DNA of 64,000 nucleotides. Origin: a virus (Duplodnaviria > Heunggongvirae > Uroviricota > Caudoviricetes). Location of the stretch: the IMG/VR virus record IMGVR_UViG_3300012983_000002; one strand, 5' to 3'. Position numbers and translations under genes: made by a program. The first letter of the stretch is position 1. Each line of letters begins with the position of its first letter. Below the pieces are notes generated by a model. The model was not told the origin of the DNA. It did not search any database and was given only the letters and a program-made list of their open reading frames with translations. Shown in pieces: positions 5,935-46,457 of this stretch.

Positions 5935-6543
5935 TTATGCGTGATGAGAGTTGATATAATCTTCCAGAGCAATATTTACTTCTTCCTCAGTCTTCGCTGC
6001 ATCGATAGCAGCCCAACATACCTGCTTTCCTTGCTGTAAGGCAGTCTCGTGAGCTGCCAAATCTGCGTAAATTTTCTGAATATCCTCAGTAGATAGAGGA
6101 GCTACCGTCTGACCGTCGGCAAATTCATAATAAGTCAAGCCTCCCATCAACAGACCAGCAAGAAGATAAATATTATCCTTCTCAGTGTGCATCACAGCAT
6201 ATCCTTCCCTATAGCTAGGAACATCTACTCTGTGTGTATGCTTGCGAACGTAATCGAGATGTGCCTGTGCTTTATCCTTAGCGGCCTGGCGACACTCCGA
6301 TGTTACATAACCGTAATACGCCTCCGGATCTGCCAGAATAGCATCTTTATCGAGCACGTCTGTCTTCTCCCAGAAAATATACTGGTCGCCTTCCCAACTC
6401 TTGCGAGGAGTTTCTTCTTCGCCAGATGGCTCTTCCTGGTGCTCGGTAACGTTAATAGTAATAGTAACCTGAGTACTACCATTAAAATCGTAGAATACTA
6501 CAGGTGCCGGCTCTTCTGAAAAATTAGCGTGCTGCTTGCGCAT
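5935..6543 (-). CDS. hypothetical protein (202 aa), immediately downstream of the DGR RT with a 20-bp overlap
   Basis: ORF overlaps the RT stop, suggesting translational coupling. Its acidic N-terminus makes it unlikely to be Avd. Confidence 0.5.
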   Translation of the reverse strand: MRKQHANFSEEPAPVVFYDFNGSTQVTITINVTEHQEEPSGEEETPRKSWEGDQYIFWEKTDVLDKDAILADPEAYYGYVTSECRQAAKDKAQAHLDYVRKHTHRVDVPSYREGYAVMHTEKDNIYLLAGLLMGGLTYYEFADGQTVAPLSTEDIQKIYADLAAHETALQQGKQVCWAAIDAAKTEEEVNIALEDYINSHHA

Positions 6544-7669
6544 AATGAGAAATAATGTTTGATGCTCTACTGAACGATTTTATAGCATTAAGAGCTCTTT
6601 GTACATACCTTGTCGCAGCCGAATCCATGTATCCTTTATACGACATAAGTCTAAGGGACTGTCTTAACGACATAACGCCTCCCTTAACTTTAATAAGTAG
6701 CTTTCTTGCCTTTCTGAATATATGCTTGCGCAGCGTAACCAATCCTCCTGGAGATACTCGGAAACCCATCATGTCTACTGGGTGTCGTTTAGTAATTCTA
6801 TGAATCTGCCACGAAGGTTTTATCATTAGGTGTAATACAGAGGCCGCTCTCTTGGTAATAGCTTTTATCGCTTTGCACAGACTCCTTTTATTTGTACCTA
6901 TAAATAGCATGTCGTCCATGTAGAACAGAGTACGCTTTACCTGGTTATTACGCTTACAGGATCTCTTAGTAACACACTCCTCCTTTGCGAAGTGATAAAG
7001 ATCAGACAAATATATGTTAGCTAACGTCTGGCTAAGAAAACTACCGATAGCCATGCCCCTTGGTACAGAATACACTAGCTCACGTATAAGCCACATTAAG
7101 CGATCATTGCATATTCTTTTCTCCAACCAAGCCATCATGCAATCCCTATCCACAGAACCATAAAAGTCCTTGATATCTAATTTAGTAGCGTATAGCTTAT
7201 GATCCGAACTCAGCCACTTCTTTATAAACTTGATACCATAATGAGCACCGCGTCCTTTGATACTACTGACTTGAGTTACACCTATGCGCTTACATACCTC
7301 ATCAAGAGCCAGAACAGCTATATGATCAAACATAAGCTGTCTTATACCTAATACAGATATCTTTCTAGACTTGCCGCTTCCTGGATCTATTCTTATTACT
7401 TGCTTGGGTGTGGGTAGGCCTAAATCCTCACCAGACAATAAAGTATCCTGTAGATCCTTGGCTATAGAAAAACAAGCATCAAAGTACTGCTCGCCTCTAT
7501 GCTTAAGAATGCGAGCTACTTCTTTTCGCGAACAATTTGGTAGATATTTCTTAAACAGATGTACCGTATCGTGTCGCCGCCTTTTTCTGCTAGGCGCAAA
7601 ACACTGAAGCACTGCTCTGAGAATAAGGTCCCCATCGCAAATATCTACATTCTTACACTTACGTTTCAT
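6524..7669 (-). CDS. reverse transcriptase, diversity-generating retroelement type
   Basis: Catalytic motif FYMDDMLFIG (YxDD). The upstream motif GMAIGSFLSQTLANIYL carries the IGxxxSQ signature typical of DGR RTs rather than the QGxxxSP of group II intron RTs. It is adjacent to the TR and two VR-bearing genes. Confidence 0.85.
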   Translation of the reverse strand: MKRKCKNVDICDGDLILRAVLQCFAPSRKRRRHDTVHLFKKYLPNCSRKEVARILKHRGEQYFDACFSIAKDLQDTLLSGEDLGLPTPKQVIRIDPGSGKSRKISVLGIRQLMFDHIAVLALDEVCKRIGVTQVSSIKGRGAHYGIKFIKKWLSSDHKLYATKLDIKDFYGSVDRDCMMAWLEKRICNDRLMWLIRELVYSVPRGMAIGSFLSQTLANIYLSDLYHFAKEECVTKRSCKRNNQVKRTLFYMDDMLFIGTNKRSLCKAIKAITKRAASVLHLMIKPSWQIHRITKRHPVDMMGFRVSPGGLVTLRKHIFRKARKLLIKVKGGVMSLRQSLRLMSYKGYMDSAATRYVQRALNAIKSFSRASNIISHYAQAAR

Positions 7670-7860: not shown

Positions 7861-7959
7861 CGGGCGCAGATGTTCCAGTTCGCGTTCCCAAGACCGTTGT
7901 TGAGGTTCAAGTAAGCAGATCCAGCGTTCGTACCGTTGTTCAGGTTACCGCCAGAAAGG
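7861..7959 (-). repeat. DGR template repeat (TR), about 99 bp
   Basis: About 99 bp homologous to the 3' ends of ORFs 8079..10292 and 10403..12640. Every mismatch falls on a plus-strand T (template-strand A). The TR read in the target frame contains about 10 AAC codons. Confidence 0.85.
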
Positions 7960-8026
7960 AACAATCGCTTCGAAATCATATCCCTAAAATTTTCTATATC
8001 CTATTAGTAACTACAAGTGGATCCTC

Positions 8027-8085
8027 TCGAGGGGTAGGAGCTCTGCCCCTCCCCCTCGAACTCCCCCACCCCGATGGACTAATCA
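8027..8085 (-). promoter_or_regulatory. IMH-like GC-rich element plus hairpin downstream of VR2
   Basis: This 59-bp flank is identical to 10351..10409. The minus-strand reading gtgattagtccatcggggtgggggagttcgagggggaggggcagagctcctacccctcgag contains a 9-bp stem ctcgagggg/cccctcgag. It is absent at the TR flank. Confidence 0.6.
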
Positions 8086-10292
8086 CGGGCGCAGAAGTAC
8101 CAGTACGCGCTCCCAAGACCGCCGTTGAGGTGCAAGGAAGCAGATCCAGCGTGCGGACCGTTGACCAGGGAACCGCCAGAAAGGAACTCCTTAGCCTCAT
8201 TAGTACTCACGTAGAACTTATCACCATGTCCCTCCTGATCAGACGAGCTACCTACCAGTACAGGATAAGCGACACCATTCCAGGAGATAGTCTCGTTATA
8301 GATGAATTTATCTGAAACAGTACCATCCACTACTCCAGAAGGCACATATCCAGCCGTTATCCATGGGGACAATGTATTAGATGTACTGCTCAGTCTAGCT
8401 TTACCATCAGGACATGTAAGGATTACCATCTGACTTGTTGCTGGAGTGATAGAGACTCCATCAATAGTAAGAGCAGTAGATCCATCTCCCTTTACAGCTA
8501 CAGTATCTCCTGCGCAAATGTAACCGCCAGGCATGTACTCTGTACCTTGTACGCGATATGGATGTTTTTGATTTGTAAGAGATGTTACAGACCCGTCGTG
8601 CATTCCAAGTACTCCTGTTCCGCTTACACCACCATTCATCGTCTCTCCACCAAGAGAGAATCCTTGACACGCATATGCACAATACTGAACATCACTACCC
8701 AGGGCGTCCTGATCTGCCTTAGTAGTAACAACAACGAAAGGTTTGACAGGGAATGCTGTATTGTTGGCAGGATCAATTCGCAAGCACAGCTGTCCTGAAT
8801 CACTCTTGATCTCTGCAGTAGGATCAGTCAGATCATACTTAGCAATTTCCGCAATACGCACATACTGTGTAGCATTAGTAGTCGTATATCCGAATGCCAT
8901 AGCATTTCCGATAAGTGCAGCGCTGCCAGCAGAATTATAGCCATTCAAGCAGACTGTACATCCCACCTCGAATGCTCCCTGACTGGAGATAGGGAACAGA
9001 TAACTAGGGGTAGTAATAGCCGCAGCAGCCTTCACAGCGTTTTGGTTATTCTGCGACATACCAGTATGGATCTGCTGTGAGTTCTTATTAGCATTCTTAA
9101 CAATATCAAACAGCATACCGAATGCATTCACGCATGCCTTACCTGGATTAGCAGCGGCCTGATTTCCGAATGCGATAATGTTGTTATAGCTAAGGTTGTT
9201 TCTGAGAGGAGCGTTGAGCTTAGATACCAGACCCTGCGTACTTGTCGAATCATAACCTCCACAGAAGGCAGAATGACACCAATAAGGACGAAGTACAAAT
9301 GAATTGGTAGAAGCATCCCACACCTGACAGGAAGGCCACACATGGAAGTCTTCCTCTGTAAGACCGTGAGCCTCTAATTCGGCGATAGTATCAGCATCCA
9401 GTCCCTCGTATGTAATACCATCAGATACGACAGTACTCCAGGGGGAGTCTGAGATTACCCAGAGCTGTGAGATAGGGGATCCGTTCTCTGTTCCGTCTGC
9501 AGTCAGCCATGTACCGTCTGCTTGCTGGAACTTCTCCGTCTTTACAGCAAACCAGAAGATAGGACCGAATGCAGCAATGTTCTGAGTCTGATCGAATGCT
9601 GGGATATTAAACGTACCAGAAGGTGTAGCAACAGTACCTCCTGTTACACCTCGAATAGCTGTAATGTGCTTTACACCGTACTCGTCCTTAATGTAGTTTC
9701 CGTACTGCCAGTAGAACACCCATTCCTTACCAACATAATCATCTACGCCAAGCGCAGTATCGGTAGAGCAGGCGTGATTAAGATTTTCATTAGCCCACAG
9801 CTTAGCTGTCATATTATTGGCAAAGAAATTACCAGCAGCTGAAATAGTAGGCGCTACATTAGCTACAGCTCCGCTCGCATCCTTGTAAGCGTACGGTACA
9901 CGAGAACCATATACACGTCTAGGAGCTGCTGCCAGAGGGTAATTAGGCTGAGCTACTGCCTTATAATATTCATTGAAATAATTAACTGGGATAGCTGTAC
10001 TAGGAACGGCTGTAGTAGGATAGGTCGGAGCGTCTGCTGCCACATCAGCAAAAATCTGAGCAATCTGATTAAATTTTTCATGCTCAGCTGCTGTAAGATG
10101 TACGGTAGTATTCTGCTCGTGTTCCTGCAGTGAGGTACTCTGATCACCGATGGCCTTAATAACATCAGCCCCGTTTACAGACAGCCGTCCGGCCACTGTT
10201 GCGTCTCCTGTTACAGAGATATTCTTAACAGAGAGTACTGTAGTGTTTACAGTATCTGCTGTCACAACTCCTCGAGAAATTTTTACACTCAT
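8079..10292 (-). CDS. DGR target protein 2 (737 aa), putative receptor-binding/tail fibre protein with a C-terminal variable domain
   Basis: Paralogue of 10403..12640, with shared motifs YWCHSA, LFDI(V/I)K(N/T)ANKN, RVQGTEYM and a C-terminal ...CARD. The VR occupies the last ~35 codons, and a C-type-lectin-like variable region is expected. Confidence 0.8.
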   Translation of the reverse strand: MSVKISRGVVTADTVNTTVLSVKNISVTGDATVAGRLSVNGADVIKAIGDQSTSLQEHEQNTTVHLTAAEHEKFNQIAQIFADVAADAPTYPTTAVPSTAIPVNYFNEYYKAVAQPNYPLAAAPRRVYGSRVPYAYKDASGAVANVAPTISAAGNFFANNMTAKLWANENLNHACSTDTALGVDDYVGKEWVFYWQYGNYIKDEYGVKHITAIRGVTGGTVATPSGTFNIPAFDQTQNIAAFGPIFWFAVKTEKFQQADGTWLTADGTENGSPISQLWVISDSPWSTVVSDGITYEGLDADTIAELEAHGLTEEDFHVWPSCQVWDASTNSFVLRPYWCHSAFCGGYDSTSTQGLVSKLNAPLRNNLSYNNIIAFGNQAAANPGKACVNAFGMLFDIVKNANKNSQQIHTGMSQNNQNAVKAAAAITTPSYLFPISSQGAFEVGCTVCLNGYNSAGSAALIGNAMAFGYTTTNATQYVRIAEIAKYDLTDPTAEIKSDSGQLCLRIDPANNTAFPVKPFVVVTTKADQDALGSDVQYCAYACQGFSLGGETMNGGVSGTGVLGMHDGSVTSLTNQKHPYRVQGTEYMPGGYICAGDTVAVKGDGSTALTIDGVSITPATSQMVILTCPDGKARLSSTSNTLSPWITAGYVPSGVVDGTVSDKFIYNETISWNGVAYPVLVGSSSDQEGHGDKFYVSTNEAKEFLSGGSLVNGPHAGSASLHLNGGLGSAYWYFCARD
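8086..8184 (-). repeat. DGR variable repeat VR2 (3' end of target gene 2)
   Basis: 14 mismatches versus the TR, all at TR adenines. Confidence 0.85.
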
Positions 10293-10350
10293 GATATGTA
10301 TTTCGTTATATTTTGCGTTAATAAATTTGTCAATATAAGATTAGAGGCCC

Positions 10351-10409
10351 TCGAGGGGTAGGAGCTCTGCCCCTCCCCCTCGAACTCCCCCACCCCGATG
10401 GACTAATCA
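10351..10409 (-). promoter_or_regulatory. IMH-like GC-rich element plus hairpin downstream of VR1
   Basis: Identical to 8027..8085. Confidence 0.6.
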
Positions 10410-12640
10410 CGGGCGCAGATGCGCCAGGACGCGTACCCAAGACCGCCGTTGAGGCCCAAGCAAGCAGATCCAGCGTACGTACCGAAGTTCAGGCTACCGC
10501 CAGAAAGGTATTCATACACTCCCTTATTATTACTGCGATAGTAATAATCACCGAAACTATTACTAGAACTGGCACCCTGGCCTATGCTGAGTGTTACGAA
10601 TCCACCAGACTCTGACAGTGTTCCTTGGGCAACATAACCCTCAGTTATAGGACACATGGTCTGCACCTTATATCCAGCATTAATCCAATTAGACACAGTG
10701 CCAGCTCCATTATTAATACGTTTAACATGAGCAGGACAATTAAGGATCATGTAACGTTCTACTCCAGGCTCATTAGTATAGTATTCTCCATTAATCTCTA
10801 TGGGTGTTGTACCGTCATCTCTTATAGCAATCATGTCGGACGATACAGTCCAGGCTCCAACCATATATTCTGTTCCCTGTACTCTGAACGGATGTCTACC
10901 ATTAGTGAGATTAGTACATGCTCCGTCTGTTTTTCCAAGTACAGCATCAGTCTCCCCAGATAGTGCAAATCCCTGTTGAACATAACAGCATGCCCTTACT
11001 CCGGCAGCTTGTAACTCAGCACACGCCTCTTCGGTAGTTCTTACGAGGAATGGTTCAACTGTACCCGGATCTAATACGATACACGGAGCTGTTACTGTAC
11101 CGGCATCTACCGTATCGAACGTACGTAATTCCACAGCACTTATTCTCCCTATCTGTGTCTTTGCTGATCTGCCATTAGATACTCTTAAGATACCTCTATA
11201 CTTAGCCTTAGTAGAATCAACATACATAACACTCTCCAGGTATACTGTGCAGTGTTTCTCGAATTGCTTCTTGGCCTGATCTGCTGTGCCTATCGGGACT
11301 ATATAATCGGCAGAAGCAGTGTTATATGTAGGTACAGCCTTGTATGTTAAATTATCTGTAACGTTCTGATCGTTACTGTAGTTATTGCTCATACCAGTGT
11401 GATAGGCCTGTGTATTCTTATTAGCAGTCTTAATAATATCAAACAGAATCGGGAATCCTGTAATACATGCTGCAGTTCCTCCTCGATTAATAGAAGGGTA
11501 TACTCCACCTACAGCAGCACCATATGCAGCATTAAGGTGATTGTAGGAAAGATTGCTTCTACGAAGAGGAAGATTAGGTTTAGACACAATAGGTCCTGTT
11601 CCTGCCTCATTCTCGGCTCCTGCAAAATAAGCAGAATGGCACCAATACGGGCGTTCTATATACGTGTCGAGGGTAGAGTCATAAACAAGACACTCGGGCC
11701 ATATACGTAAATCTGAGGCCGTTATACCGTGAGAATAAAGTTCCAGGCGTTTCTCATCACTCAACTTATCCCACGGAGAATCAGATATACCCCATAGCTG
11801 AGTAATTGGTTGTCCTGTTTCTGTACCGTCATCTGTAGTCCATCTCTGAACTCCATTAGAGTCAGTGAACTTGTATAGCTCTGTTTTAACGAAGTACCAG
11901 AACTTAGGTCCGAAAGCACATACATTCTTATCTCTACTGAATACTCTACCCGTCTTAGGAAGATCTTTAACAGCAGTAATATGCTTATTACCGTCCTCGT
12001 CAGTAATGTAATTAGCATGTCCCCACCAGAACGCCCATTGCTTTCCTACGTAATCATCTACTCCAGGATTGGTATCTGTAGCGTATGTATGATTGAGGCC
12101 GGCATTATCCATCAGCTTGGCTTCCAGCTTAGCCTTATCAAACTTGGCTATTGGTGTATTAGCTGGAATGCTTGCTATGGAAGACATCAGATAAGTGGAG
12201 TCGAAATTAGCAGCTCCATCTACTTTCTGAGGATAAGGAACTCTGGATATGTAAACCTTACCTGGAGCCTCGTATACTCCCTTCTCTGCTCGATTAGCGA
12301 AGAAGTCATTAAAGAATTGCCAGGAATAAGAACCTGCTGGTAGACGAGGAGGTACAGTGGCTGTAGGAGTAAGCTTACCTGTATTATCAAAAGAGAACCG
12401 GGAAGTTATATTGTTAAAGCTTGTTCTCTCTTGACCAGTGAGATGAACTACTGAATCTGACTTGTGTGACTTCGTACCATCAGCCAATTCTTCGATATGT
12501 TCTCCTACCTTATATTCACCGTCGGTAGGTGTTCCTATGATTAGTTCTCCTTTTACACCCATATTACCTTCTAAGTCCAACGAAGGTCGAGTAAGAGAGT
12601 CTGATAGAATAATTGTTTCTGCATTTAGATCTGCTGCCAT
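10403..12640 (-). CDS. DGR target protein 1 (745 aa), putative receptor-binding/tail fibre protein
   Basis: Paralogue of 8079..10292 with a diverged N-terminus. It ends ...GGLGYASWRICARD, with the VR at its 3' end. Confidence 0.8.
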   Translation of the reverse strand: MAADLNAETIILSDSLTRPSLDLEGNMGVKGELIIGTPTDGEYKVGEHIEELADGTKSHKSDSVVHLTGQERTSFNNITSRFSFDNTGKLTPTATVPPRLPAGSYSWQFFNDFFANRAEKGVYEAPGKVYISRVPYPQKVDGAANFDSTYLMSSIASIPANTPIAKFDKAKLEAKLMDNAGLNHTYATDTNPGVDDYVGKQWAFWWGHANYITDEDGNKHITAVKDLPKTGRVFSRDKNVCAFGPKFWYFVKTELYKFTDSNGVQRWTTDDGTETGQPITQLWGISDSPWDKLSDEKRLELYSHGITASDLRIWPECLVYDSTLDTYIERPYWCHSAYFAGAENEAGTGPIVSKPNLPLRRSNLSYNHLNAAYGAAVGGVYPSINRGGTAACITGFPILFDIIKTANKNTQAYHTGMSNNYSNDQNVTDNLTYKAVPTYNTASADYIVPIGTADQAKKQFEKHCTVYLESVMYVDSTKAKYRGILRVSNGRSAKTQIGRISAVELRTFDTVDAGTVTAPCIVLDPGTVEPFLVRTTEEACAELQAAGVRACCYVQQGFALSGETDAVLGKTDGACTNLTNGRHPFRVQGTEYMVGAWTVSSDMIAIRDDGTTPIEINGEYYTNEPGVERYMILNCPAHVKRINNGAGTVSNWINAGYKVQTMCPITEGYVAQGTLSESGGFVTLSIGQGASSSNSFGDYYYRSNNKGVYEYLSGGSLNFGTYAGSACLGLNGGLGYASWRICARD
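10410..10508 (-). repeat. DGR variable repeat VR1 (3' end of target gene 1)
   Basis: 14 mismatches versus the TR, all at TR adenines, plus one boundary mismatch. Confidence 0.85.
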
Positions 12641-24733: not shown

Positions 24734-25627
24734 TTAACCTATGTACACGATAATACCGTCACATATAGCCTTACCGATCCTGTCAATATTAGTAGCCATC
24801 CAGTATAGATTATCCAGATTATCGTAGAAACCTACTTCGATAAGGGTTGCAGGCATATCAGCCTTAGCATTGCGAAGCACACCCACTGTCGACGTGTGAA
24901 TGTGTTCTGCACGATTATCAGGTCCTTTAAGCGCTAACAATTTGTTAACAATAGTCTGACCTAAATCCTTGCCCTTACTTCTTCCAGGATAATATAGCGC
25001 TACTGGTCCTCTGGCTTTGCATGCCAAATCTTCCCAGCCTGAAGCTCCTGCTGCATTGTTATGAATGGATACAAACACTCTAGGATCACAAGCATTGGCT
25101 CTTGTGTACACCTGACGAATTTCTGCATTATTGGACAAAGAAGGATCGTCATACAGTACTACTTTCTTGCCCTCAGATTCCAAATGCTTCTTAGTAGCTT
25201 CTGCAATTTTTACATTGAGAATGTGCTCAACACTATCGGATGTAGTCGAGGTAAACCCAAGCGCATCTGCTATCTCCTTACACTTTCCCTTAGACCAATC
25301 AACTCCCTTGAACTGTCTTGGATGCTCTCTACTGTAATCAGACGTGTGTCCCGGATCAAGGAATACGTCTATTCTGGTTGTTTTTGGCTTGGGGTTTTTT
25401 ATACGAAGCTTTTCTAGAATAGCGGTGAGAGTTCTACTGCCTATTATCCCGTCAGCTGTGGTGCCGACGGTTTCCTGGATACTGACATTATTAGGTTGGC
25501 ATCCTAGCTCAGAGGCTACGGCCGATCTTGTCTTAGGTCCCCAGAGTCCGTCAGCTTCTACTCCCACCATTCGTTGTATCTCACTGATCTTATCAGAATT
25601 AGTACTCATATAGATATTATAGACCAA
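24734..25627 (-). CDS. endolysin: N-terminal peptidoglycan-binding domain fused to an N-acetylmuramoyl-L-alanine amidase (Amidase_3-like)
   Basis: PG_binding_1-like GVEADGLWGPKTRSAVASEL. Amidase motifs DPGHTSDY and FVSIHNNAAG. Confidence 0.75.
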   Translation of the reverse strand: MVYNIYMSTNSDKISEIQRMVGVEADGLWGPKTRSAVASELGCQPNNVSIQETVGTTADGIIGSRTLTAILEKLRIKNPKPKTTRIDVFLDPGHTSDYSREHPRQFKGVDWSKGKCKEIADALGFTSTTSDSVEHILNVKIAEATKKHLESEGKKVVLYDDPSLSNNAEIRQVYTRANACDPRVFVSIHNNAAGASGWEDLACKARGPVALYYPGRSKGKDLGQTIVNKLLALKGPDNRAEHIHTSTVGVLRNAKADMPATLIEVGFYDNLDNLYWMATNIDRIGKAICDGIIVYIG

Positions 25628-28172: not shown

Positions 28173-28783
28173 TAGTAGAATGATACTGAAGTTGCAGTTG
28201 TTGCTGGTGAATAGTACTGCAGCAACGACGAGATATCATAAGTAACATGTTCTACATTGGCAGTATCTGTATTATCATCAACAGACACAAGCTCGATCCT
28301 GTAAAATAACTTGCATCCCTGAACAATAAACACAGCTCGCGCAGCCTTCTTACACATTGTATTAACTGCGAGCTTGGCAGACGGACAGATAGGAGCTGCC
28401 AGCACAGAGTAGCACATTCCATTGAGAGTTTTCTCCTGTATATAAACTACATTGTGTGCTCGGCGCATAAACCCGATAGTCTTCGTAACACCTGCAGGGA
28501 ATTTAAGTTTGAAGAGAGACGGAAGTAGAGCACCAACACCTGTCGGATCGTCTACAATCATCTTCTTAGTTACAGTAATCTCTGTATATTTCCAGCCGGT
28601 CACAGTGCCCATACCGGCAGACCAATAATTATTAGGCTTAGCGTCCTCAGGCTCTATAACTCGAGGTAACTCTATCTCGAGTTTCTCCTCCACGTCTATA
28701 GTAGGAATATGCCCCTGTTCTTCTGCAACCGTGTCGCTTTTACGACACCCAAAAATAGATCGAATAGTATTAATATTAATCAT
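28172..28783 (-). CDS. hypothetical protein
   Basis: Start trimmed to an internal Met. Confidence 0.45.
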   Translation of the reverse strand: MININTIRSIFGCRKSDTVAEEQGHIPTIDVEEKLEIELPRVIEPEDAKPNNYWSAGMGTVTGWKYTEITVTKKMIVDDPTGVGALLPSLFKLKFPAGVTKTIGFMRRAHNVVYIQEKTLNGMCYSVLAAPICPSAKLAVNTMCKKAARAVFIVQGCKLFYRIELVSVDDNTDTANVEHVTYDISSLLQYYSPATTATSVSFY

Positions 28784-29141
28784 TTTTAAGTAACTGTTCG
28801 TATTTCTTCTGAGCTTCAGACCTGGGTAACACATCTGCCTTGATGGATACCCCTGCCTCTTCCAATACACTCTTCAATACATCTATCGCCACTATTGTAC
28901 GTACGAAATACGCCTGAGAGCTATCTTCGGCTGCTGCCTCTAACATACCTAACTCCTTAATATACGCAGATATCAATGCACTGGCCATCAGATACACTGT
29001 CCCGTTATTAAGGTCGTTGTTAATGATATTACCAGCTGCAAGCCTGGACTTCTTGCATAAGTCTTCCAGGAACTCTTGCTCTGTCCCGTCATCAACAACG
29101 ATAGAAGCTCTGCTCTTATGCTTGATTGCAAATCTAGTCAT
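28776..29141 (-). CDS. hypothetical protein
   Basis: 121-aa ORF. Confidence 0.45.
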   Translation of the reverse strand: MTRFAIKHKSRASIVVDDGTEQEFLEDLCKKSRLAAGNIINNDLNNGTVYLMASALISAYIKELGMLEAAAEDSSQAYFVRTIVAIDVLKSVLEEAGVSIKADVLPRSEAQKKYEQLLKND

Positions 29142-29935
29142 TACTTTTTCTTAGCAGAGTCCTTTGCATTATTGGACGATCGGAAGAAATGCCAACCATG
29201 ATGAGCTAACAGCAACTTACTTCCGCTGGTAGAGGTTGTTGTCTTTGCAGGCTCGGGTTCAGTTTGAGAATAACCGTAAGCCCTCCAATCATACTCGTCG
29301 TCATCATAACCATAGTCATAATCGTAGTCATAGTAAGCCTTATAAGAATTACTATAACCCCCATAACTATACTTCTTGGTTGTAGTTGCTGGTGCCTTAT
29401 ATTCCTTATACGTACCATTAGAGAACTGAACCCCAGGATAATCCTTGTCTGTCACGTACGTGCCATAGGTTACAATAGAACCGTCCTTCTTCATGAATGC
29501 GAACTTGGAAGATCCGATAATAGCCTCAACTACATGCGCACCATCCCCGCCGCCGTTAACAGCAGGAATATACAGATTGCGGAAGAATGTCTCCGAATCA
29601 GTCATACCTCCGTGCGCCTTAATAGACAGAGTACCGTTATGACAGAAAATCAAATCTGTACGCTCATCGCGCCAGCAGTGACAGTTCTCTATATTAATAG
29701 GACCAACAGACTTAATACGAGCGTGCAATACCCATGACGTGTTATCATCCTCTGTGATAGGCTTCATGTACTCAAGGAACTCTTTCTTATCGAGAGTACG
29801 CTTTACCTCGGGACGCTCCATACCGGCCTTATGCCAAGCAACAGCAAATCCATCAGGATTACGCTCACAAGAAGTGACGATGCTGTTCCAGGAGGGAGAC
29901 TTGATACCTTTGGGCTTGGTAAGAATAATGCACAT
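29141..29935 (-). CDS. class-II glutamine amidotransferase-like Ntn-hydrolase domain protein with a Tyr/Asp low-complexity C-terminus
   Basis: Begins MCIIL, with Cys2 as the nucleophile typical of GAT-II/Ntn hydrolases. C-terminal YYDYDYDYGYDDDEYDW tract. Adjacent to the amidoligase gene. Confidence 0.55.
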   Translation of the reverse strand: MCIILTKPKGIKSPSWNSIVTSCERNPDGFAVAWHKAGMERPEVKRTLDKKEFLEYMKPITEDDNTSWVLHARIKSVGPINIENCHCWRDERTDLIFCHNGTLSIKAHGGMTDSETFFRNLYIPAVNGGGDGAHVVEAIIGSSKFAFMKKDGSIVTYGTYVTDKDYPGVQFSNGTYKEYKAPATTTKKYSYGGYSNSYKAYYDYDYDYGYDDDEYDWRAYGYSQTEPEPAKTTTSTSGSKLLLAHHGWHFFRSSNNAKDSAKKK

Positions 29936-30018
29936 AATATTTTAATCTAGTGTTATTTGTTTGATATTTAAGTTTGCTAATACTTTTAACTTATTACTTA
30001 CTAAACCTAGTAGGTATA

Positions 30019-31023
30019 TTACATGTCCTCCTCATCGGAGCAACGACCGTTACCTCGGGGATTGGGGGCGCTTTCGCGCTTACCATCAGGGGAAGGAGTA
30101 TTGAAATAGAAGTGAAGAAGCCAGCTGTTCTCTCGAACATTCTCCTTCATGAACTGCTCGAACGAAGCAAGATTGCAGTCCTTACCAATACGAACCTTCA
30201 TGGTCCACAGGCAGAACAACAGTACGAACTCATTAATAGCGGCTACGCGCTCAGGGCACAGACTACCCTTACCCATACGGAACTCGATAGTATATTTATT
30301 AAGGGTATTGATCTCACAAGTACGACGACGGTTAGCCTCCTTAACAGACGATACAAGAATCTGATACAGTTTAGGCTCAGAGATCATCATATCGGGTACA
30401 GCCTCAGTGAACTTAGCAATAGTATCATCCTTCATCTTGACCTGGTTATAACACACCTTTCGCCCGAACACACGATGTGCGCTCTCATTGTCTTCAATAA
30501 ACATTGCATACAGAGCGGTAAGCTTACCTACAGCTGTACGCATCTGACGGTATTGTGTGGACAGCGCTGCGTCAGGATTGCAGAAGATTGTACGACTAAT
30601 GTGAACGTGGTGACCTGTAGTATTATTGGTCCAGGAACGTGCTCCCTTGGAACTAAGCTCAGAAAGCAGAGGACGCCAGAAATCCGGGTTAGTAGCGTCC
30701 TCAGGATGCAACGGAATAGTAATCAGCTCCATGGGAGCAGATCCGGATAAAGAACCGTCATTCTCACAACAATACCAGTTAGTCTTGTGATCGCAGAACT
30801 CACGACGAGCACGCTCGCTACGGAAAGCCAGTTCAATCTCACTACCCATCAGATAACGAGAGTCAGGACGACTATCTGAAGAGATAGGATGATTGAATAC
30901 ACGATTACAAGACTGGGAGTGATACCCCGTATGGTAACCATACATATAAGTTTCCTGTGTGTAGTTATCATTAACATAGGGACTTACCTTGGCATCTGCA
31001 TCGATAGACTGTGTAGTAGGCAT
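30019..31023 (-). CDS. amidoligase (glutamine synthetase-like COOH-NH2 ligase family)
   Basis: Motifs in family order: GSEIELAF (GxExE), CENDGSL (DxS), MELITIPL and TGHHVHISRT (GxHVH). Confidence 0.6.
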   Translation of the reverse strand: MPTTQSIDADAKVSPYVNDNYTQETYMYGYHTGYHSQSCNRVFNHPISSDSRPDSRYLMGSEIELAFRSERARREFCDHKTNWYCCENDGSLSGSAPMELITIPLHPEDATNPDFWRPLLSELSSKGARSWTNNTTGHHVHISRTIFCNPDAALSTQYRQMRTAVGKLTALYAMFIEDNESAHRVFGRKVCYNQVKMKDDTIAKFTEAVPDMMISEPKLYQILVSSVKEANRRRTCEINTLNKYTIEFRMGKGSLCPERVAAINEFVLLFCLWTMKVRIGKDCNLASFEQFMKENVRENSWLLHFYFNTPSPDGKRESAPNPRGNGRCSDEEDM

Positions 31024-31082: not shown

Positions 31083-31811
31083 TTACATATTTACAGTCGG
31101 AGCCAGGGCAGTACGCTCCGAAGGGGAGAGTACATAGATAGATCCCTTAAGTTCACTGCTACATTCTTGAAGGAACTTAGTAAATACAGCTGCCATATCA
31201 GGCTCCTCACCAACATCCTCCATCAGAGCACGAGAACTGAGAAGCAGTTGCTCCCACACGCACGGATCAATACCCTCGATAACATCACTCGAAAGACGAA
31301 TATCGACAGAGCCCCTATAGTCAACATCAGGATTATTCTCGAGCCATGCGTTGTAACGCTCCTCGAACTTAGCGCGATCAAGCGCACCAGCTCTAAGTAT
31401 ATTGATCAGACCAGTCGTACTGATCGTTCCATACACATCCACAGTAGCCAGACTTACAGACTCCTTACCGAGCGCATCGCATCCAATAAAGCTAAGATAC
31501 GTATTAGAGCCCCAGTACTTCTTAACAAAATAATTAATGTAAGCTTCCACTACGGAAGTTACAGAAATACCTACCTCCCAAGAGCCAGCCTCCGGGGTAT
31601 CCTCAATACAGGCAGGATCCCACATAGACTTCCAATGCTCTGCAAATATAGACTCGAGAATAGGATCATGTACCTCAGGAACGTACTTATAAGGAACCTT
31701 CATCAAAATACTAGAGGAATCTATATCACTAGCTTTTACGGCCTCCAACTTAGTATTAATACCAGTAACGCGTGTAAGCTCAGTAACCTTGCCGTTGATT
31801 TCGATTAACAT
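31083..31811 (-). CDS. hypothetical protein
   Basis: 242-aa ORF. Confidence 0.5.
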   Translation of the reverse strand: MLIEINGKVTELTRVTGINTKLEAVKASDIDSSSILMKVPYKYVPEVHDPILESIFAEHWKSMWDPACIEDTPEAGSWEVGISVTSVVEAYINYFVKKYWGSNTYLSFIGCDALGKESVSLATVDVYGTISTTGLINILRAGALDRAKFEERYNAWLENNPDVDYRGSVDIRLSSDVIEGIDPCVWEQLLLSSRALMEDVGEEPDMAAVFTKFLQECSSELKGSIYVLSPSERTALAPTVNM

Positions 31812-31866: not shown

Positions 31867-32064
31867 TTACCACGCAGAACGACGATTGCTACCAGCATCT
31901 CTATTAGTAGCAGCAATAATGTCATACAACGTATCTGTAGCATCCATTCGCCTTCCTGTGTCTGAATTAACATACACAGTCTTAGCGCTAGCATTCTTAG
32001 CAAGACGCGCCTCCCATGCCTTACGGATCTCTTCTTCCGTTGGTTCTTGTTTTTCTTCTTTCAT
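31867..32064 (-). CDS. small hypothetical protein
   Basis: 65-aa ORF. Confidence 0.4.
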   Translation of the reverse strand: MKEEKQEPTEEEIRKAWEARLAKNASAKTVYVNSDTGRRMDATDTLYDIIAATNRDAGSNRRSAW

Positions 32065-32291
32065 CGTAGTGAATCAGTTGCCCACACTCTACACAAAGTA
32101 TCATGCAGCGTTAAATCCAAGAATTCTCGCCCATCGTCGGACAAGTTTATTACACATTTCTCTATAACCGGGTAGGAGTCTGATCCTATCTCTACAATTA
32201 CTTCCGATCCGTACCTATTGCATATAGACACCACAATAGGCATACCTACTCTACTTCTGTAGGTTACGTTCTTGTGGAATTGAACCAGCAT
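32061..32291 (-). CDS. small hypothetical protein
   Basis: 76-aa ORF with a 4-bp overlap. Confidence 0.4.
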   Translation of the reverse strand: MLVQFHKNVTYRSRVGMPIVVSICNRYGSEVIVEIGSDSYPVIEKCVINLSDDGREFLDLTLHDTLCRVWATDSLR

Positions 32292-32292
32292 G

Positions 32293-33153
32293 TTATTTAC
32301 GCTTCGTATTCTTTGTAGCGTCTACATTCCACCGTGGGTCTAGAGATGTTCCCAACCACACATGCTCTACAACGTTAGAGATCTTATCGAGATACGTCTC
32401 AATAAACTTGCTCTTACCGTGCTTCGCTATCTGACCTTCACAGAACTTGTTAAACACAGTCATGGGTAGATCAGTACTCTTGCTACCTTTATCCTTATCC
32501 CTCAATTTTTTAAATAACCCCACCTTAGAAGGTTTGATGTGGTAGAATTCCATAATAGTACCACCCTCATATATCTCAGCGCCAGACTCATCAGTAATAA
32601 TAGAACCATCACTGGAATAAAAAGGCGATGTGAGATATTCCATCGACAGCGTTCCATCTTTCGGAAGTAGGAGAGTATACTCATCCCCTTCCGGAACTTC
32701 TCTTGGCAAAAGGTTATCTCGAATAAATACAATCACTTCAGCAACGGCATAGGCCTTGAAGATACCATAGCTATGACCGTCGCCGGCTGCCGACCACCCT
32801 CTCTTTATACAAAGGACATGCGACGACGGTAGATATTCTTTTGAGTCGTAAAAACAATCCTCGACATACTCAAGGTCGTTATTCATAACATCCCATCGAT
32901 GTTTATCGATCCAGTCACAATACCAGTCGGTAAAATACTTATCAATTAACAGCTTCTTGTTGACTTCCGTCATTACAGTACTCTCAGGAACATCTATGTA
33001 ACCTGCCTTTATGTCGGCAAGAAACTGAGTAATCATAGTACCCTCGTCCTGATCTTCGCTGTACTTGTCCGAACACCAAAGAACTATATCATCAGTGCTA
33101 GGCTCCGGAAACGTTACATCCCAGGTATCTTTGTCGTTTATTGTTACGTTCAT
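32293..33153 (-). CDS. hypothetical protein
   Basis: 286-aa ORF. Confidence 0.5.
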   Translation of the reverse strand: MNVTINDKDTWDVTFPEPSTDDIVLWCSDKYSEDQDEGTMITQFLADIKAGYIDVPESTVMTEVNKKLLIDKYFTDWYCDWIDKHRWDVMNNDLEYVEDCFYDSKEYLPSSHVLCIKRGWSAAGDGHSYGIFKAYAVAEVIVFIRDNLLPREVPEGDEYTLLLPKDGTLSMEYLTSPFYSSDGSIITDESGAEIYEGGTIMEFYHIKPSKVGLFKKLRDKDKGSKSTDLPMTVFNKFCEGQIAKHGKSKFIETYLDKISNVVEHVWLGTSLDPRWNVDATKNTKRK

Positions 33154-33197: not shown

Positions 33198-33240
33198 AAT
33201 ACAAAATAGCCGCCGACAATCTCACGACTGTCGGCGGCTA
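33198..33240 (-). terminator. rho-independent terminator
   Basis: 12-bp stem tagccgccgaca/tgtcggcggcta with a 10-nt loop, followed on the minus strand by ttttgtatt. Confidence 0.55.
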
Positions 33241-33311
33241 TACACTTACCATTAGTTTGAACCAACAGGGTAAACAGTCCCTATCAGTTATATATAACAC
33301 ACATAGGCGTA

Positions 33312-34147: not shown

Positions 34148-34747
34148 TTACGTTAAATGCTGGACAGACTCCAGCGATCTATGAGACATATGTCTCTCTA
34201 CTATCTCAATAATACTATTACACAACGTTACCTGGTGCATATTCATATCGTTGCGTTCAGCACCTAACAAAACACGCACAGCTTTCAGGTAGCGTTTCTC
34301 CTGACTAATCCTGGAACCATTGCTTTCCTCGATATTGGCGAGCATATCGCAAAGCTTCACAGTCAGCGCAAGAGAGCTTGCTGTAAGAAGAAGTTGTGCC
34401 AGATACCACACCTTGCCGTTACGTTCAATTTCCTTCTGATCCCAAGTATCGGTGAGTTTAAGCACTGGCAAGTACACGTCGTCCCAGCGCCTATCATATT
34501 GCGTTACATATCTGAATACGTCACGCTTACTCTTTACAGGAACATGCCATTCCTGCTCTATACGCGGAATACCTTCTTCGAAAACATCATGAAGCCAAGC
34601 AACGCACACGGCGCACTCATCTCCCCCATTACGTTCTACTAACTCTGCAACCCTGGCAGGATGGTTGATAAATGGAGTCACACCATCTGCGCGGAACTGA
34701 CCTTCATGAATCTTTGTAGCGAATTCTTTAGCATAGTCTTTTGTCAT
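34148..34747 (-). CDS. HD-domain phosphohydrolase
   Basis: H...HD metal-binding pattern (FINHPARVAELV ... VAWLHDVFEEG). Confidence 0.55.
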   Translation of the reverse strand: MTKDYAKEFATKIHEGQFRADGVTPFINHPARVAELVERNGGDECAVCVAWLHDVFEEGIPRIEQEWHVPVKSKRDVFRYVTQYDRRWDDVYLPVLKLTDTWDQKEIERNGKVWYLAQLLLTASSLALTVKLCDMLANIEESNGSRISQEKRYLKAVRVLLGAERNDMNMHQVTLCNSIIEIVERHMSHRSLESVQHLT

Positions 34748-34849: not shown

Positions 34850-34920
34850 TACCCTCGGACGGTAACGATCCGCCTCTCTCAGTGTGTAAAACTGATTTGC
34901 TACCTTTACAACACAAGGGC
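34850..34920 (-). tRNA. candidate tRNA-Val(TAC) with a non-canonical T-loop
   Basis: Hand-folded cloverleaf: acceptor GCCCTTG/CGAGGGT, anticodon stem TCAGT/ACTGA with loop TTTACAC, but T-loop ATCGTTA instead of TTCGAAT. Intergenic. Needs tRNAscan confirmation. Confidence 0.4.
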
Positions 34921-34995
34921 TACTCTTACCCAAGTTGCCATCGGTTCAGGATTGGTTACCTGATTGTATAGTTACCGACGGACTTGGATCATTAA

Positions 34996-35070
34996 TTGCG
35001 GAGGAGGGATTCGAACCCACGACCTCCAGGTTATGAGCCTGGCTAGCTACCTGACTGCTAACACCCCGCG
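34996..35070 (-). tRNA. tRNA-Met(CAT), initiator-like
   Basis: Resembles bacterial tRNA-fMet (CGCGGGGTG...CTCATAA...GGTTCGAATCC...CCGCAA) with a C1:A72 mismatch. Confidence 0.7.
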
Positions 35071-35121
35071 ATTGCTAATTAAGAATATAATAAGCTTTGG
35101 GTGTAGAGTCAACAATAAAAA

Positions 35122-35361
35122 TTAATTTTTTATAGATACATCAACAATAACATCACCTTCATCCACAAGCTGTAATAATTTAGCCTGTTCAATACCGACC
35201 AGCTTAGCTACAAATGGTGTCATGTTCCATCCATAGCAAGTACTGATCTCACCGGTAGAAGACTTAGTGTAAGCTCCTAATTGCATAGTATCTCCCTGGA
35301 CTACGAGCTCAATTGAGAAAATCCCATCGCCTTTTTCTTTTGATTTAAGTGTAATTTTCAT
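35122..35361 (-). CDS. small hypothetical protein
   Basis: 79-aa ORF. Confidence 0.45.
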   Translation of the reverse strand: MKITLKSKEKGDGIFSIELVVQGDTMQLGAYTKSSTGEISTCYGWNMTPFVAKLVGIEQAKLLQLVDEGDVIVDVSIKN

Positions 35362-35362
35362 G

Positions 35363-35956
35363 TTAACCTAAATTATATTTTTCTACAATTTTAGTTGGTA
35401 CATCTTCAGGCCACCTATCCAACATATACTTAAGCTGATCCTCTGCAGGTTCTCCGAATCTATCGTAGCGTAAACAATTCTCAGGACCACAAGCAGCGAC
35501 AAGCATAGCTTGATTAAAGAAGTACTCGTCGCATACGGATTCCATATAACTTACCGACGTATACATCTCATCGCGCTCCTTACTAAGACGTTCAAACTCC
35601 TTCAGATAGGCTATCCTATCTGTAGGCATACAAAGAATATGATAGACCCTATTACTTCTAATAAGACCATGCATGGAGTGTAAGAACTTGCTGGCGTTCT
35701 TTACTACAGGAACATCGGATGCAGCAGAATACGCGTAATTAGACATAATGTATCTATCTACGAGTACACCGCCATACCGCAACGCGTTATCTGCCTCTGC
35801 AAACTGAGCATACATAGCTTCAGGATCCTTAATGTATGTCAGATGCATATACTGAAGCTCTAACGCTTTACATAACTTCTTAGCCAGGGTAGTCTTTCCT
35901 GATCCGTCCGGGCCTTCCAATACTATTGCTGGTTTTTTATCTCTTGCCATAAACAA
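35363..35956 (-). CDS. tmk: thymidylate (dNMP) kinase
   Basis: P-loop LEGPDGSGKTT at the N-terminus. Size and layout fit dTMP kinase. Confidence 0.65.
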   Translation of the reverse strand: MFMARDKKPAIVLEGPDGSGKTTLAKKLCKALELQYMHLTYIKDPEAMYAQFAEADNALRYGGVLVDRYIMSNYAYSAASDVPVVKNASKFLHSMHGLIRSNRVYHILCMPTDRIAYLKEFERLSKERDEMYTSVSYMESVCDEYFFNQAMLVAACGPENCLRYDRFGEPAEDQLKYMLDRWPEDVPTKIVEKYNLG

Positions 35957-35984
35957 AAATAGCGACCTGTTATGGTCGCTAGAA

Positions 35985-36056
35985 CATCCCCAAGCGGAAT
36001 CGAACCGCTGTCGCAGGAATGAAAATCCTGTGTCCTAACCGCTAGACGATGGGGAC
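35985..36056 (-). tRNA. tRNA-Glu(TTC)
   Basis: GTCCCCATCGTCTAGCGGTTAGGACACAGGATTTTCATTCCTG...GGTTCGATTCC. Close to canonical bacterial tRNA-Glu. Confidence 0.75.
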
Positions 36057-36061
36057 ATTAA

Positions 36062-36133
36062 CGAACCATATCGGAATCGAACCGATGTATCCGCAGGGAC
36101 AGTGCGGTGTACTAACCACTGTACTAATGGTCC
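36062..36133 (-). tRNA. tRNA-Asp(GTC)
   Basis: Acceptor GGACCAT/ATGGTTC, D-stem GTAC/GTAC, anticodon loop CTGTCCC, T-arm ATCGG-TTCGATT-CCGAT. Confidence 0.75.
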
Positions 36134-36143
36134 TTTTATATCA

Positions 36144-36214
36144 AGCGGATAACGGGAGTCGAACCCGTCTAGTAAGCTTGGAAGGCTTCTGCATTACCGA
36201 TATGCTATATCCGC
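36144..36214 (-). tRNA. tRNA-Gly(TCC)
   Basis: Acceptor GCGGATA/TATCCGC, anticodon loop CTTCCAA, T-arm ACGGG-TTCGACT-CCCGT. Confidence 0.7.
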
Positions 36215-36263
36215 GCAATAACATTACTATAAAATATAAAACTATAAATACAATAAAATAAAT

Positions 36264-37013: not shown

Positions 37014-37026
37014 AATAACTATCTAC

Positions 37027-37097
37027 CTCCCCCGCCAGGTAACGATCCTGGCCTAACGGATTAACAGTCCGCTGTGCATCCTCTACACCTCAGGGGA
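37027..37097 (-). tRNA. candidate tRNA-Asn(GTT) with a non-canonical T-loop
   Basis: Acceptor TCCCCTG/CGGGGGA, anticodon stem GCGGA/TCCGT with loop CTGTTAA, T-stem CCAGG/CCTGG with loop ATCGTTA. Intergenic. Needs confirmation. Confidence 0.4.
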
Positions 37098-37151
37098 ATA
37101 TCAACTAATGCTCTTAAAGTATTACAGAAACATTTTTAAATGTAAACACTA

Positions 37152-44526: not shown

Positions 44527-46457
<1,931 letters not shown>

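Follow-up and report, generated by a model that had tools for sequence, protein, structure and literature searches.

What do the products of two adjacent phage genes, one encoding a predicted amidoligase and the other a predicted class-II glutamine amidotransferase (GAT), do, and do they act together? The genes lie in the window (the whole stretch of DNA that was analysed, 64 kb of a ~200-kb genome, to which all window-wide negative results refer), which comes from a large uncultured phage whose host is probably a member of the Bacteroidota. Such pairs have been known since 2009, when neighbourhoods of phage Amidoligase_2 (PF12224) and class-II GAT genes were predicted computationally (Iyer et al. 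2009, as cited in later papers), and they are routinely annotated in phage genomes (phiEco32, the LUZ24-like phages PaP3, tf, UFV-P2 and TC6, RIO-1, 7-11, mycobacteriophage Marvin, and others); the window adds no new kind of system. The original prediction for this locus described the pairing as computationally predicted and its targets as uncharacterized, which matches the available portions of the literature, and no experimental characterization of an Amidoligase_2–GAT-II pair was found there. The pair is among the more widespread phage enzyme modules with only predicted chemistry, and its phage annotations are contradictory: superinfection exclusion, nitrogen auxiliary metabolism, secondary metabolites, and DNA hypermodification.

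Folds and conserved catalytic residues of the two proteins

Both ORFs are present on the minus strand, at 29141..29935 and 30019..31023. Each has metagenome homologs at 49–97% identity, and for this reason we consider both to be real genes rather than chance ORFs. The features referred to in the text are:

30019..31023, minus strand: amidoligase gene, 334 aa, predicted Amidoligase_2 / glutamine-synthetase-fold carboxylate-amine ligase
30832..30846, minus strand: GSEIE motif (G60-x-E62-x-E64), first-strand acidic pair of the glutamine-synthetase-like active site
30601..30615, minus strand: GHHVH motif (G137-x-H139-x-H141)
30277..30285, minus strand: E247-F248-R249 motif
29936..30018, minus strand: AT-rich intergenic spacer of 83 nt between the amidoligase and GAT genes
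29141..29935, minus strand: GAT-like ORF, 264 aa
29378..29935, minus strand: GAT catalytic domain, residues 1–186, pLDDT mostly >90
29144..29377, minus strand: disordered Tyr/Ser/Lys/Asp-rich GAT tail, residues 187–264, pLDDT <50
29285–29335, minus strand: YYDYDYDYGYDDDEYDW stretch in the tail, GAT residues 201–217
29180–29215, minus strand: lineage-conserved LLLAHHGWHFFR motif in the tail, conserved in relatives at 61–97% identity

The amidoligase assignment was originally made from three ordered motifs (GxExE, DxS and GxHVH), all of which are present: G60-S-E62-I-E64, D89-G-S91 and G137-H-H139-V-H141. In an alignment of 77 sequences, reaching relatives at ~22% identity, these form part of an ordered acidic/His/Arg set (GxExE, DxS, E, GxHxH, R, ExR); G60, N82, E99, R188 and E247-F-R249 are invariant, while E62, E64, D89, S91, G137, H139 and H141 are each at least 90% conserved. 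Profile searches point to Amidoligase_2 and to no other family: the protein itself passes the Pfam gathering threshold marginally (23.0 bits, cutoff 22; E=8.6e-5), and 66 of the 77 aligned relatives match PF12224. A confident structural model has a glutamine-synthetase-like fold. Searches of PDB sequences with shallow and deep profiles returned nothing at E<=10, which leaves the predicted structure as the basis of the fold assignment. The protein is a short form, without the ~110–130-aa N-terminal extension of most relatives; identification of that extension as a WYL_2 domain was rejected (hhalign probability 0.1). Sequence and model together are best, if tentatively, explained by a predicted ATP-dependent carboxylate-amine ligase of the glutamine-synthetase / gamma-glutamylcysteine-ligase / PafA fold.

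The second ORF had been singled out for its Met-Cys start, typical of class-II GAT/Ntn hydrolases, and this claim stood up well. It begins MCIIL, which puts Cys next to the initiator Met; the Met-Cys start is shared by 113 of 120 homologs. The model of residues 1–186 has the four-layer Ntn fold, and its Foldseek matches—the GlmS glutaminase domain 1xff (6.9e-6), EgtC, 3mdn, 1te5 and PurF—all have probability 1.00. EgtC is a gamma-glutamyl amidohydrolase. A phmmer search of the PDB with the single sequence found nothing; the family profile recovered 3mdn (3.6e-7), 1te5 (1e-6) and GlmS (3e-3), which places stand-alone YafJ-type proteins ahead of amidotransferases such as GlmS as the closest solved relatives by sequence. 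Against GATase_4 (PF13230) the protein on its own scores 17.2 bits, below the gathering cutoff of 23, and many homologs at 33–47% identity carry a precomputed PF13230 match. C2, R73, N100, G101 and D113 are invariant in the GAT alignment. In the profile alignment, HaRikthG of the GAT family corresponds to GlmS HTRWATHG (R73 to GlmS R73), HNG to GlmS N98-G99, and TDSE to TDSE of 1te5; the Arg and Asp that bind glutamine or a gamma-glutamyl group, and the Asn-Gly oxyanion hole, are all kept. The most plausible activity, put forward with slightly less than even confidence from these alignments and the model, is that of a stand-alone class-II GAT/Ntn cysteine amidohydrolase of the YafJ/EgtC type. 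Two outcomes set beforehand as refuting the prediction, namely an unrelated family for 30019..31023 and the lack of an Ntn fold in its neighbour, did not come out.

The GAT tail was initially described as an unusual Tyr/Asp repeat. The YYDYDYDYGYDDDEYDW stretch is indeed there, but such a tail does not set the protein apart: tails of low complexity and rich in Tyr occur family-wide, with a median of 12% Tyr in 108 homolog tails. At the DNA level the tail contains only a short 6/12-nt repeat.

Strict pairing, with no other conserved partner

Within the window, no terminator-like site is predicted in the 83-nt spacer (29936..30018), and the two genes probably form a co-transcribed, autonomous two-enzyme module of a large phage. 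A candidate promoter motif upstream of both genes, AAAAGTATTA, was discarded: it has three copies in the window, a number equalled in 1 of 100 shuffles. The ORFs 31083..31811, 28776..29141, 28172.., 27810.., 27253.. and 32293.. have no match in Pfam, PHROGs, NCBIfam or PADLOC, and are conserved only in the closest lineage. The suggestion that either of the first two might resemble a gamma-glutamyl cyclotransferase was thus not borne out in these four databases.

Contexts were then compared across 45 sources, dereplicated to 27 phage or mobile-element groups. An ORF matched by the amidoligase HMM adjoins the GAT gene on the same strand in 41 of the 45 sources (25 of the 27 groups). The amidoligase is upstream in all but one, and the distance between the genes ranges from gaps of ~500 nt to a 4-nt overlap. 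In two loci (L011 and L012), amidoligase–GAT pairs are tandemly duplicated as units. Neighbour clustering across the 27 groups gave no third conserved partner gene; after the amidoligase, the next commonest neighbour (terminase or portal) is found in five groups only, and domain scans of 139 neighbour ORFs turned up nothing beyond generic phage families for replication, recombination and packaging. In small phages, the pair is found where the replication/recombination module meets the terminase genes, among Sak, PD-(D/E)XK, ParB_N, DnaB and IstB genes, while in locus L007 it belongs to an early or leading-region-like set with SSB, ArdC, ERF and YqaJ. These comparisons show that the two genes alone constitute the conserved unit in a large, mostly Bacteroidota-associated subfamily.

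The window pair resembles the phiEco32, LUZ24 and RIO-1 cassettes, whose function is also only predicted, in having the same two families adjacent, on the same strand and in an early/middle gene region. It differs from them in several respects: (i) those cassettes add an ATP-grasp enzyme, a COOH-NH2 ligase and an AIG2/GGCT cyclotransferase, whereas here there are two genes only, (ii) the window GAT, a core of ~180 aa plus a Tyr-rich disordered tail, is far shorter than theirs (486 aa in UFV-P2), and (iii) the window amidoligase is without the N-terminal extension that is usual in its family. The three additional genes were not found among the flanking ORFs or 62 other ORFs of the window, nor do they recur in related loci.

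Searches of GenBank phages with the region (megablast) or with the amidoligase (tblastn, 1e-5) gave no match. The closest match among cultured phages is gp06–gp07 of the Methylophilales (OM43) phage MEP402. gp07 is a GAT homolog (tblastn 9e-8; HMM 8.6e-38), and gp06, which is directly upstream and overlaps it, matches the amidoligase HMM (7.6e-14) and has GIEME, DGS and GMHVH motifs. Identity is only ~29%, however, and MEP402 is a 44-kb podovirus of a betaproteobacterium; its gp06 is 548 aa long and annotated only as a hypothetical protein.

A gamma-glutamyl amide as the proposed shared adduct

For both enzymes, structural relatives point to gamma-glutamyl-amide chemistry. In our best reading, to which we give nearly even weight, the ligase would form amides of the gamma-glutamyl type, which the Cys-Ntn enzyme would cleave; here we infer the type of chemistry (gamma-glutamyl), which way each reaction runs, and that the GAT is a hydrolase rather than an ammonia donor. 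By analogy with every characterized relative, the ligase would most likely phosphorylate the gamma-carboxylate of glutamate and couple the glutamate to an acceptor amine. In the GAT, the initiator Met would be removed, after which Cys1 would attack the gamma-carboxamide of glutamine or of gamma-glutamyl-X; the substrate would be held through its free alpha-carboxylate (by Arg73) and its alpha-amino group (by Asp113), with Asn100-Gly101 as the oxyanion hole. In the most likely arrangement, both enzymes would act on the same adduct, which the ligase writes and the amidohydrolase trims, releases or recycles.

A comparable logic is seen in PuuA/PuuD, AtdA1/AtdA2 and EgtA/EgtC. PuuA/PuuD and AtdA1/AtdA2 serve amine catabolism, each pairing a glutamine-synthetase-like gamma-glutamyl-amine synthetase with a gamma-glutamyl hydrolase that is GAT-like. 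Their hydrolases are class-I (triad) GAT-like, unlike the class-II Ntn protein here, and they sit in longer catabolic operons of cellular genomes, not phages. EgtA and EgtC, of ergothioneine biosynthesis, share ~14% identity or less with the window pair, and in the Egt pathway EgtB, EgtD and EgtE are required to connect the EgtA and EgtC steps; no such genes are present here. That the Puu, Atd and Egt enzymes are all embedded in longer pathways, while no third gene is conserved beside the phage pair, counts against a ligase and hydrolase sharing one adduct. So does the apparent futility of making and breaking one bond within a minimal operon, an objection that would lapse if host enzymes worked between the two steps or if the hydrolase took a different gamma-glutamyl compound. 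The marginal Pfam score of the amidoligase, the sub-cutoff score of the GAT, and the modest Foldseek TM-scores (0.3–0.5 across the amidoligase and GAT structure comparisons) also weigh against this best reading.

The main rival is a glutamine-to-ammonia relay, as in AsnB or MurT/GatD. The pair would then be a two-subunit glutamine-dependent amidotransferase: ammonia released from glutamine by the GAT would reach the amidoligase, which would convert a target carboxylate, via an acyl phosphate, to a carboxamide. The full set of glutamine-binding and catalytic residues in the GAT is in keeping with this. A specific heteromeric complex would agree with the near-universal same-strand adjacency, the very short gaps or overlaps, and the duplication as a unit; a stoichiometric glutaminase–synthetase complex would account equally well for tight linkage and translational coupling. 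Furthermore, LLLAHHGWHFFR, a lineage-conserved C-terminal motif that follows a disordered linker, could be a docking peptide. We nevertheless regard the relay as rather unlikely. To our knowledge, no glutamine-synthetase-fold enzyme that has been characterized is supplied with ammonia by a GAT, and the class-II GAT amidotransferases that we know of are fused to their synthase. Here, no GAT–amidoligase fusion was found among the 500–626-aa amidoligase homologs (no MC start, no GAT), and the nearest solved GAT relatives are stand-alone, hydrolase-type proteins. Finally, in other lineages (Firmicutes prophages and the fuller cassettes) a gamma-glutamyl cyclotransferase joins the amidoligase or replaces its partner; this is another enzyme that cleaves gamma-glutamyl bonds, and it cannot supply ammonia.

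The conserved two-gene unit, its duplication as pairs, and the convergence on gamma-glutamyl amides narrow the experiment to two proteins and a defined reaction class.

Candidate targets

On what might the pair act? Remodelling of the cell wall for superinfection exclusion, by modification of peptidoglycan stem peptides or their cytoplasmic precursors, is the hypothesis published for the phiEco32, LUZ24 and RIO-1 cassette, and it recurs in papers that cite Iyer et al. 2009 and Hardies et al. 2013. In the window, an Amidase_3/PG_binding_3 endolysin gene (24734..25627) lies 3.5 kb downstream of the pair, and in one related locus (L003) a gene matching the N-terminal ~80 residues of this endolysin, with a faint PG_binding_3 match, is directly 3' of the GAT gene. 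Endolysin proximity is, however, limited to the lineage of the window itself, and no obvious signal or membrane segment can be recognized in either protein. As reported above, the ATP-grasp, COOH-NH2 ligase and AIG2/GGCT genes of the cassette are missing from the window and do not recur in related loci. Overall, a cell-wall target seems unlikely.

Placement of the pair in early or leading-region-like gene sets, the tandem diversification of pairs, and the family-wide Tyr-rich tails with lineage-specific terminal motifs led us to consider a self-sufficient device with which phages and mobile elements would carry out covalent tagging or counter-defence. Here the ligase would gamma-glutamylate a macromolecular amine, and the Ntn amidohydrolase would edit or erase the mark; candidates for the amine are protein lysines (host or phage), aminated DNA bases, and the partner's own conserved Tyr/Asp-rich tail serving as a scaffold. 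We hold this to be quite unlikely. The comparison with pupylation by PafA/Dop is partial: no Pup-like tag gene is evident beside the window pair, and the partner of the window ligase is an Ntn amidohydrolase rather than a Dop paralog. The C-termini encoded by the small neighbouring ORFs 31867..32064 and 32061..32291 are ...NRRSAW and ...TDSLR rather than GGQ/GGE, and no small tag-like gene ending in Gln or Glu was found beside the pair or recurring across loci.

DNA itself might be the target if the pair builds up a side chain, bearing an amino or carboxyl group, on a hypermodified pyrimidine of the phage genome. Amidoligase and amidotransferase Pfam domains are co-associated with 5-HMUDK/aGPT-Pplase clusters in viral contigs (Lee et al. 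2021). The position of the small-phage pairs between the replication/recombination module and the terminase genes, and that of the MEP402 pair just upstream of primase, helicase and polymerase, would suit such a role, as would the SSB-tip-like DF(L/M)xDDYxF motif in which three distant GAT homologs end. Against this, no dUMP/dCMP hydroxymethylase, aGPT-Pplase, 5-HMUDK-like kinase or TET/JBP was found in the 62 window ORFs (Pfam and PHROGs; 64 kb of ~200 kb), and thymidine-hypermodification genes do not recur in 19 representative related loci. The only match of this kind in the window is a dTMP kinase (35363..35956). We judge hypermodification to be very unlikely. Even more improbable, to the point of being barely credible, is that the genes are auxiliary metabolic genes that boost host nitrogen assimilation as a glutamine synthetase and a glutaminase, a role that has been proposed for a Planctomycetes phage with the same gene types.

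Elsewhere in the window, at ~6.5–12.6 kb, there is a clear diversity-generating retroelement.

Gene pair and its conservation

The locus consists of two adjacent ORFs:

30019..31023, minus strand, amidoligase-like ORF (334 aa)
29141..29935, minus strand, GAT-like ORF (264 aa)

Both lie exactly where the original prediction had placed, from the sequence alone, an amidoligase and a class-II glutamine amidotransferase (GAT) of the Ntn type; the observation of a pair is confirmed, and its interpretation is supported by the evidence below. The ORFs have metagenomic homologs at 49–97% identity and are therefore taken to be genuine genes. They are separated by an AT-rich spacer of 83 nt, in which terminator prediction gave no terminator. 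A strong terminator-like hairpin (33206-33241, minus strand; 16-bp stem with 9 GC pairs), upstream of ORF 32293..33153, may mark where the transcription unit containing the pair begins.

HMMs of the two families were run over the ORFs from 44 fetched loci and the window. In 41 of the 45 sources (25 of 27 dereplicated groups) the GAT has an amidoligase next to it in the same orientation, and two of the four unpaired sources end at a contig edge. The amidoligase lies upstream in all pairs except one (locus L014), the two genes being separated by as much as ~500 nt or overlapping by up to 4 nt. The same order is found in the cultured OM43 phage MEP402 (OP830907.1, 1616-3262), where gp07 is the GAT gene; gp06, annotated only as hypothetical, scores 7.6e-14 against the amidoligase HMM and runs into the beginning of gp07. 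Tandem copies of the whole pair occur at two loci: L011 (5497-11059; three amidoligases and two GATs, in the order A-A-G-A-G) and L012 (6805-10658; two of each, A-G-A-G). Such duplication suggests that the substrates or partners specific to each pair have diversified.

The pair itself is the conserved unit: no third gene was found to travel with it among the 27 dereplicated groups, the next commonest neighbour cluster being a terminase or portal (5/27 groups). In the window, conservation of the flanking ORFs is limited to the closest lineage, and none matched a family in Pfam, PHROGs, NCBIfam or PADLOC. Pfam searches of 139 neighbouring ORFs across loci identified terminase, portal, Sak, PD-(D/E)XK, ParB_N, IstB and DnaB families, and no recurrent ATP-grasp, COOH-NH2 ligase, thymidine-hypermodification enzyme or cyclotransferase, the last of which had been suggested as a neighbour. 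DNA hypermodification as the target of the pair has little or no support here; the same is true of the published peptidoglycan target, and of a role in nitrogen auxiliary metabolism. In one locus (L007, 1-16735) the pair lies among ERF, YqaJ, SSB, ArdC-N/MPTase, PRTRC_E, Hc1 and WYL_2 genes, a set resembling a plasmid/ICE leading region or a phage-plasmid early region.

Predicted activities of the two proteins

The motifs on which the amidoligase call was based are present (G60-S-E-I-E64, D89-G-S91 and G137-H-H-V-H141), and the protein alone passes, barely, the Pfam Amidoligase_2 cutoff (23.0 vs 22 bits). It also matches phrog_16683 and phrog_2443 ('amidoligase enzyme'), and an exhaustive profile search returned 2,143 cluster representatives at E<=1e-3. 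In an alignment of 77 sequences—66 of which match Amidoligase_2 alone among Pfam families—G60, N82, E99, W116, R188 and E247-F248-R249 are invariant, while E62, E64, D89, S91, G137, H139 and H141 are at least 90% conserved. Profiles gave no match to PDB sequences. The AlphaFold2 model built from this alignment is confident (pLDDT 93, pTM 0.93), with Foldseek matches to YbdK-like 1tt4, gamma-glutamylcysteine ligases, 1-naphthylamine glutamine synthetase (GS), gamma-glutamylmethylamide synthetase, the Pup enzymes Dop and PafA, and glutamine synthetases. The upstream gene is thus a predicted Amidoligase_2 ligase with, in the model, a clear glutamine-synthetase fold. Typical relatives are ~400 aa long, and the window protein lacks the poorly conserved N-terminal region of ~110–130 residues that most of them carry.

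The Met-Cys start noted for the downstream ORF is present. The window protein alone falls below the GATase_4 cutoff (17.2 vs 23 bits), but many homologs at 33–47% identity carry PF13230. Sixteen positions are invariant among 24 aligned sequences (M1, C2, N26, G29, H71, R73, G78, N84, H86, H99, N100, G101, T112, D113, S114 and E115). Against the PDB, the family profile best matches stand-alone YafJ-type proteins (3mdn, 3.6e-7; 1te5, 1e-6), followed by GlmS and PurF. Arg73 aligns with GlmS Arg73, His-Asn-Gly with GlmS Asn98-Gly99, and TDSE with the TDSE of 1te5. The Ntn fold is supported by an AlphaFold2 model (residues 1–186 confident, 187–264 disordered), whose Foldseek matches are the GlmS glutaminase domain, EgtC, 3mdn, 1te5 and PurF. 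The gene is a predicted stand-alone class-II GAT/Ntn cysteine amidohydrolase. Together, the invariant residues, alignments and model indicate (i) a catalytic Cys and oxyanion hole, and (ii) retention of the residues that bind glutamine, or a gamma-glutamyl ligand, by its alpha-carboxylate and alpha-amino groups.

The Tyr/Asp stretch reported in the GAT tail is real (residues 201–217, YYDYDYDYGYDDDEYDW), but rather than being an oddity of this protein it belongs to a family-wide trait: the median Tyr content of 108 homolog tails is 12%. Tails differ in length and sequence, and some distant homologs have extra C-terminal domains; in the window lineage the tail ends with a conserved LLLAHHGWHFFR motif and then basic residues. 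Acidic-aromatic tips end 17 of 120 homolog tails. Three of these (DFLNDDYPF, DFMDDDYLF and DFLTDDYVF, in homologs P0039, P0060 and P0075) resemble the C-terminal tip of SSB, which in E. coli is DFDDDIPF; the window GAT has no SSB-like tip.

Possible chemistry and known relatives

To our knowledge, all characterised structural relatives of the ligase activate the gamma-carboxylate of glutamate and join it to ammonia or an amine, as in GS, GCL, PuuA-type enzymes, GmaS and PafA. The GAT keeps precisely the residues needed to recognise a gamma-glutamyl group whose alpha substituents are free. Both enzymes therefore indicate one common chemical entity, a gamma-glutamyl amide. We tentatively prefer an arrangement in which the ligase would first form this amide and the Ntn enzyme would then cleave it, for four reasons: (i) it is well established that a GS-fold ligase can partner a GAT-like gamma-glutamyl hydrolase (PuuA/PuuD, AtdA1/AtdA2, EgtA/EgtC), (ii) among solved structures, those closest to the GAT belong to stand-alone proteins of the YafJ/EgtC type, (iii) no GAT-amidoligase fusions were found among long amidoligase homologs, and (iv) the amidoligase of other phage lineages is accompanied by a gamma-glutamyl cyclotransferase, an enzyme that cleaves gamma-glutamyl bonds and cannot donate ammonia. 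A relay, in which the GAT feeds glutamine-derived ammonia into the ligase, is a serious if rather unlikely rival, since close coupling of the genes and their duplication as pairs would fit a specific complex.

Amidoligase-GAT pairing was reportedly predicted computationally by Iyer and colleagues in 2009, according to citing papers. We found no biochemical characterisation of the pair in the literature, in agreement with the original description of such phage pairs as computationally predicted and uncharacterised. The pairing underlies the Pfam family, and annotations of the pair exist for phiEco32, LUZ24-like phages, RIO-1, Marvin, OM43 phages and archaeal viruses. In contrast to the classic multi-gene cassette of phiEco32, LUZ24 and RIO-1, the window locus comprises only the two genes; its GAT is compact and has a Tyr-rich tail, and its amidoligase lacks the N-terminal extension. 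It is a divergent addition to an already-known phage pairing.

Source phage and other window features

Nearly all window genes, including six tRNA genes, are on the minus strand:

6524..7669, minus strand, reverse transcriptase ORF (RVT_1, 1.4e-10)
about 7801-7964, minus strand, template-repeat candidate
8079..10292 and 10403..12640, minus strand, paralogous large ORFs with the two variable repeats at their 3' ends
16189-17304, minus strand, SPFH/Band-7 protein (6e-12)
24734-25627, minus strand, endolysin (Amidase_3 and PG_binding_3)
34148-34747, minus strand, HD_4 (RelA/SpoT-type HD) phosphohydrolase (Pfam 3e-7; phrog_990 5.6e-22)
34850-37098, minus strand, tRNA cluster (Val-TAC, Met-CAT, Glu-TTC, Asp-GTC, Gly-TCC, Asn-GTT)
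35363..35956, minus strand, dTMP kinase gene, interspersed with the tRNA cluster
44527-46149, minus strand, GroEL-type chaperonin (Cpn60_TCP1, 2e-76)

A Holliday-junction resolvase and a tail-protein PHROG are also encoded. GenBank phages gave zero nucleotide matches to the window region, and a metagenomic contig of 202,268 bp carries a syntenic relative. We infer a large, jumbo-class uncultured phage as the source. Its host is probably a member of the Bacteroidota; GAT relatives in prokaryotic assemblies come, with few exceptions, from MAG contigs of Bacteroidales, Bacteroidaceae, Segatella, Tannerella or Azobacteroides.

The endolysin gene lies 3.5 kb downstream of the pair. In locus L003, the gene right after the GAT (11808-12509) matches the N-terminal ~80 residues of this endolysin at 59% identity and shows a faint PG_binding_3 match; proximity of endolysin and pair was not seen in other lineages. 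The HD_4 phosphohydrolase, whose counterpart in the 202-kb relative is 87% identical, could be an alarmone hydrolase. The reverse transcriptase, template-repeat candidate and variable repeats make up a diversity-generating retroelement (6524-12640, minus strand). Within the ~103-nt repeat core, mismatches fall at template adenines in 15/16 and 15/17 cases for the two variable repeats, and one template repeat appears to serve two targets.
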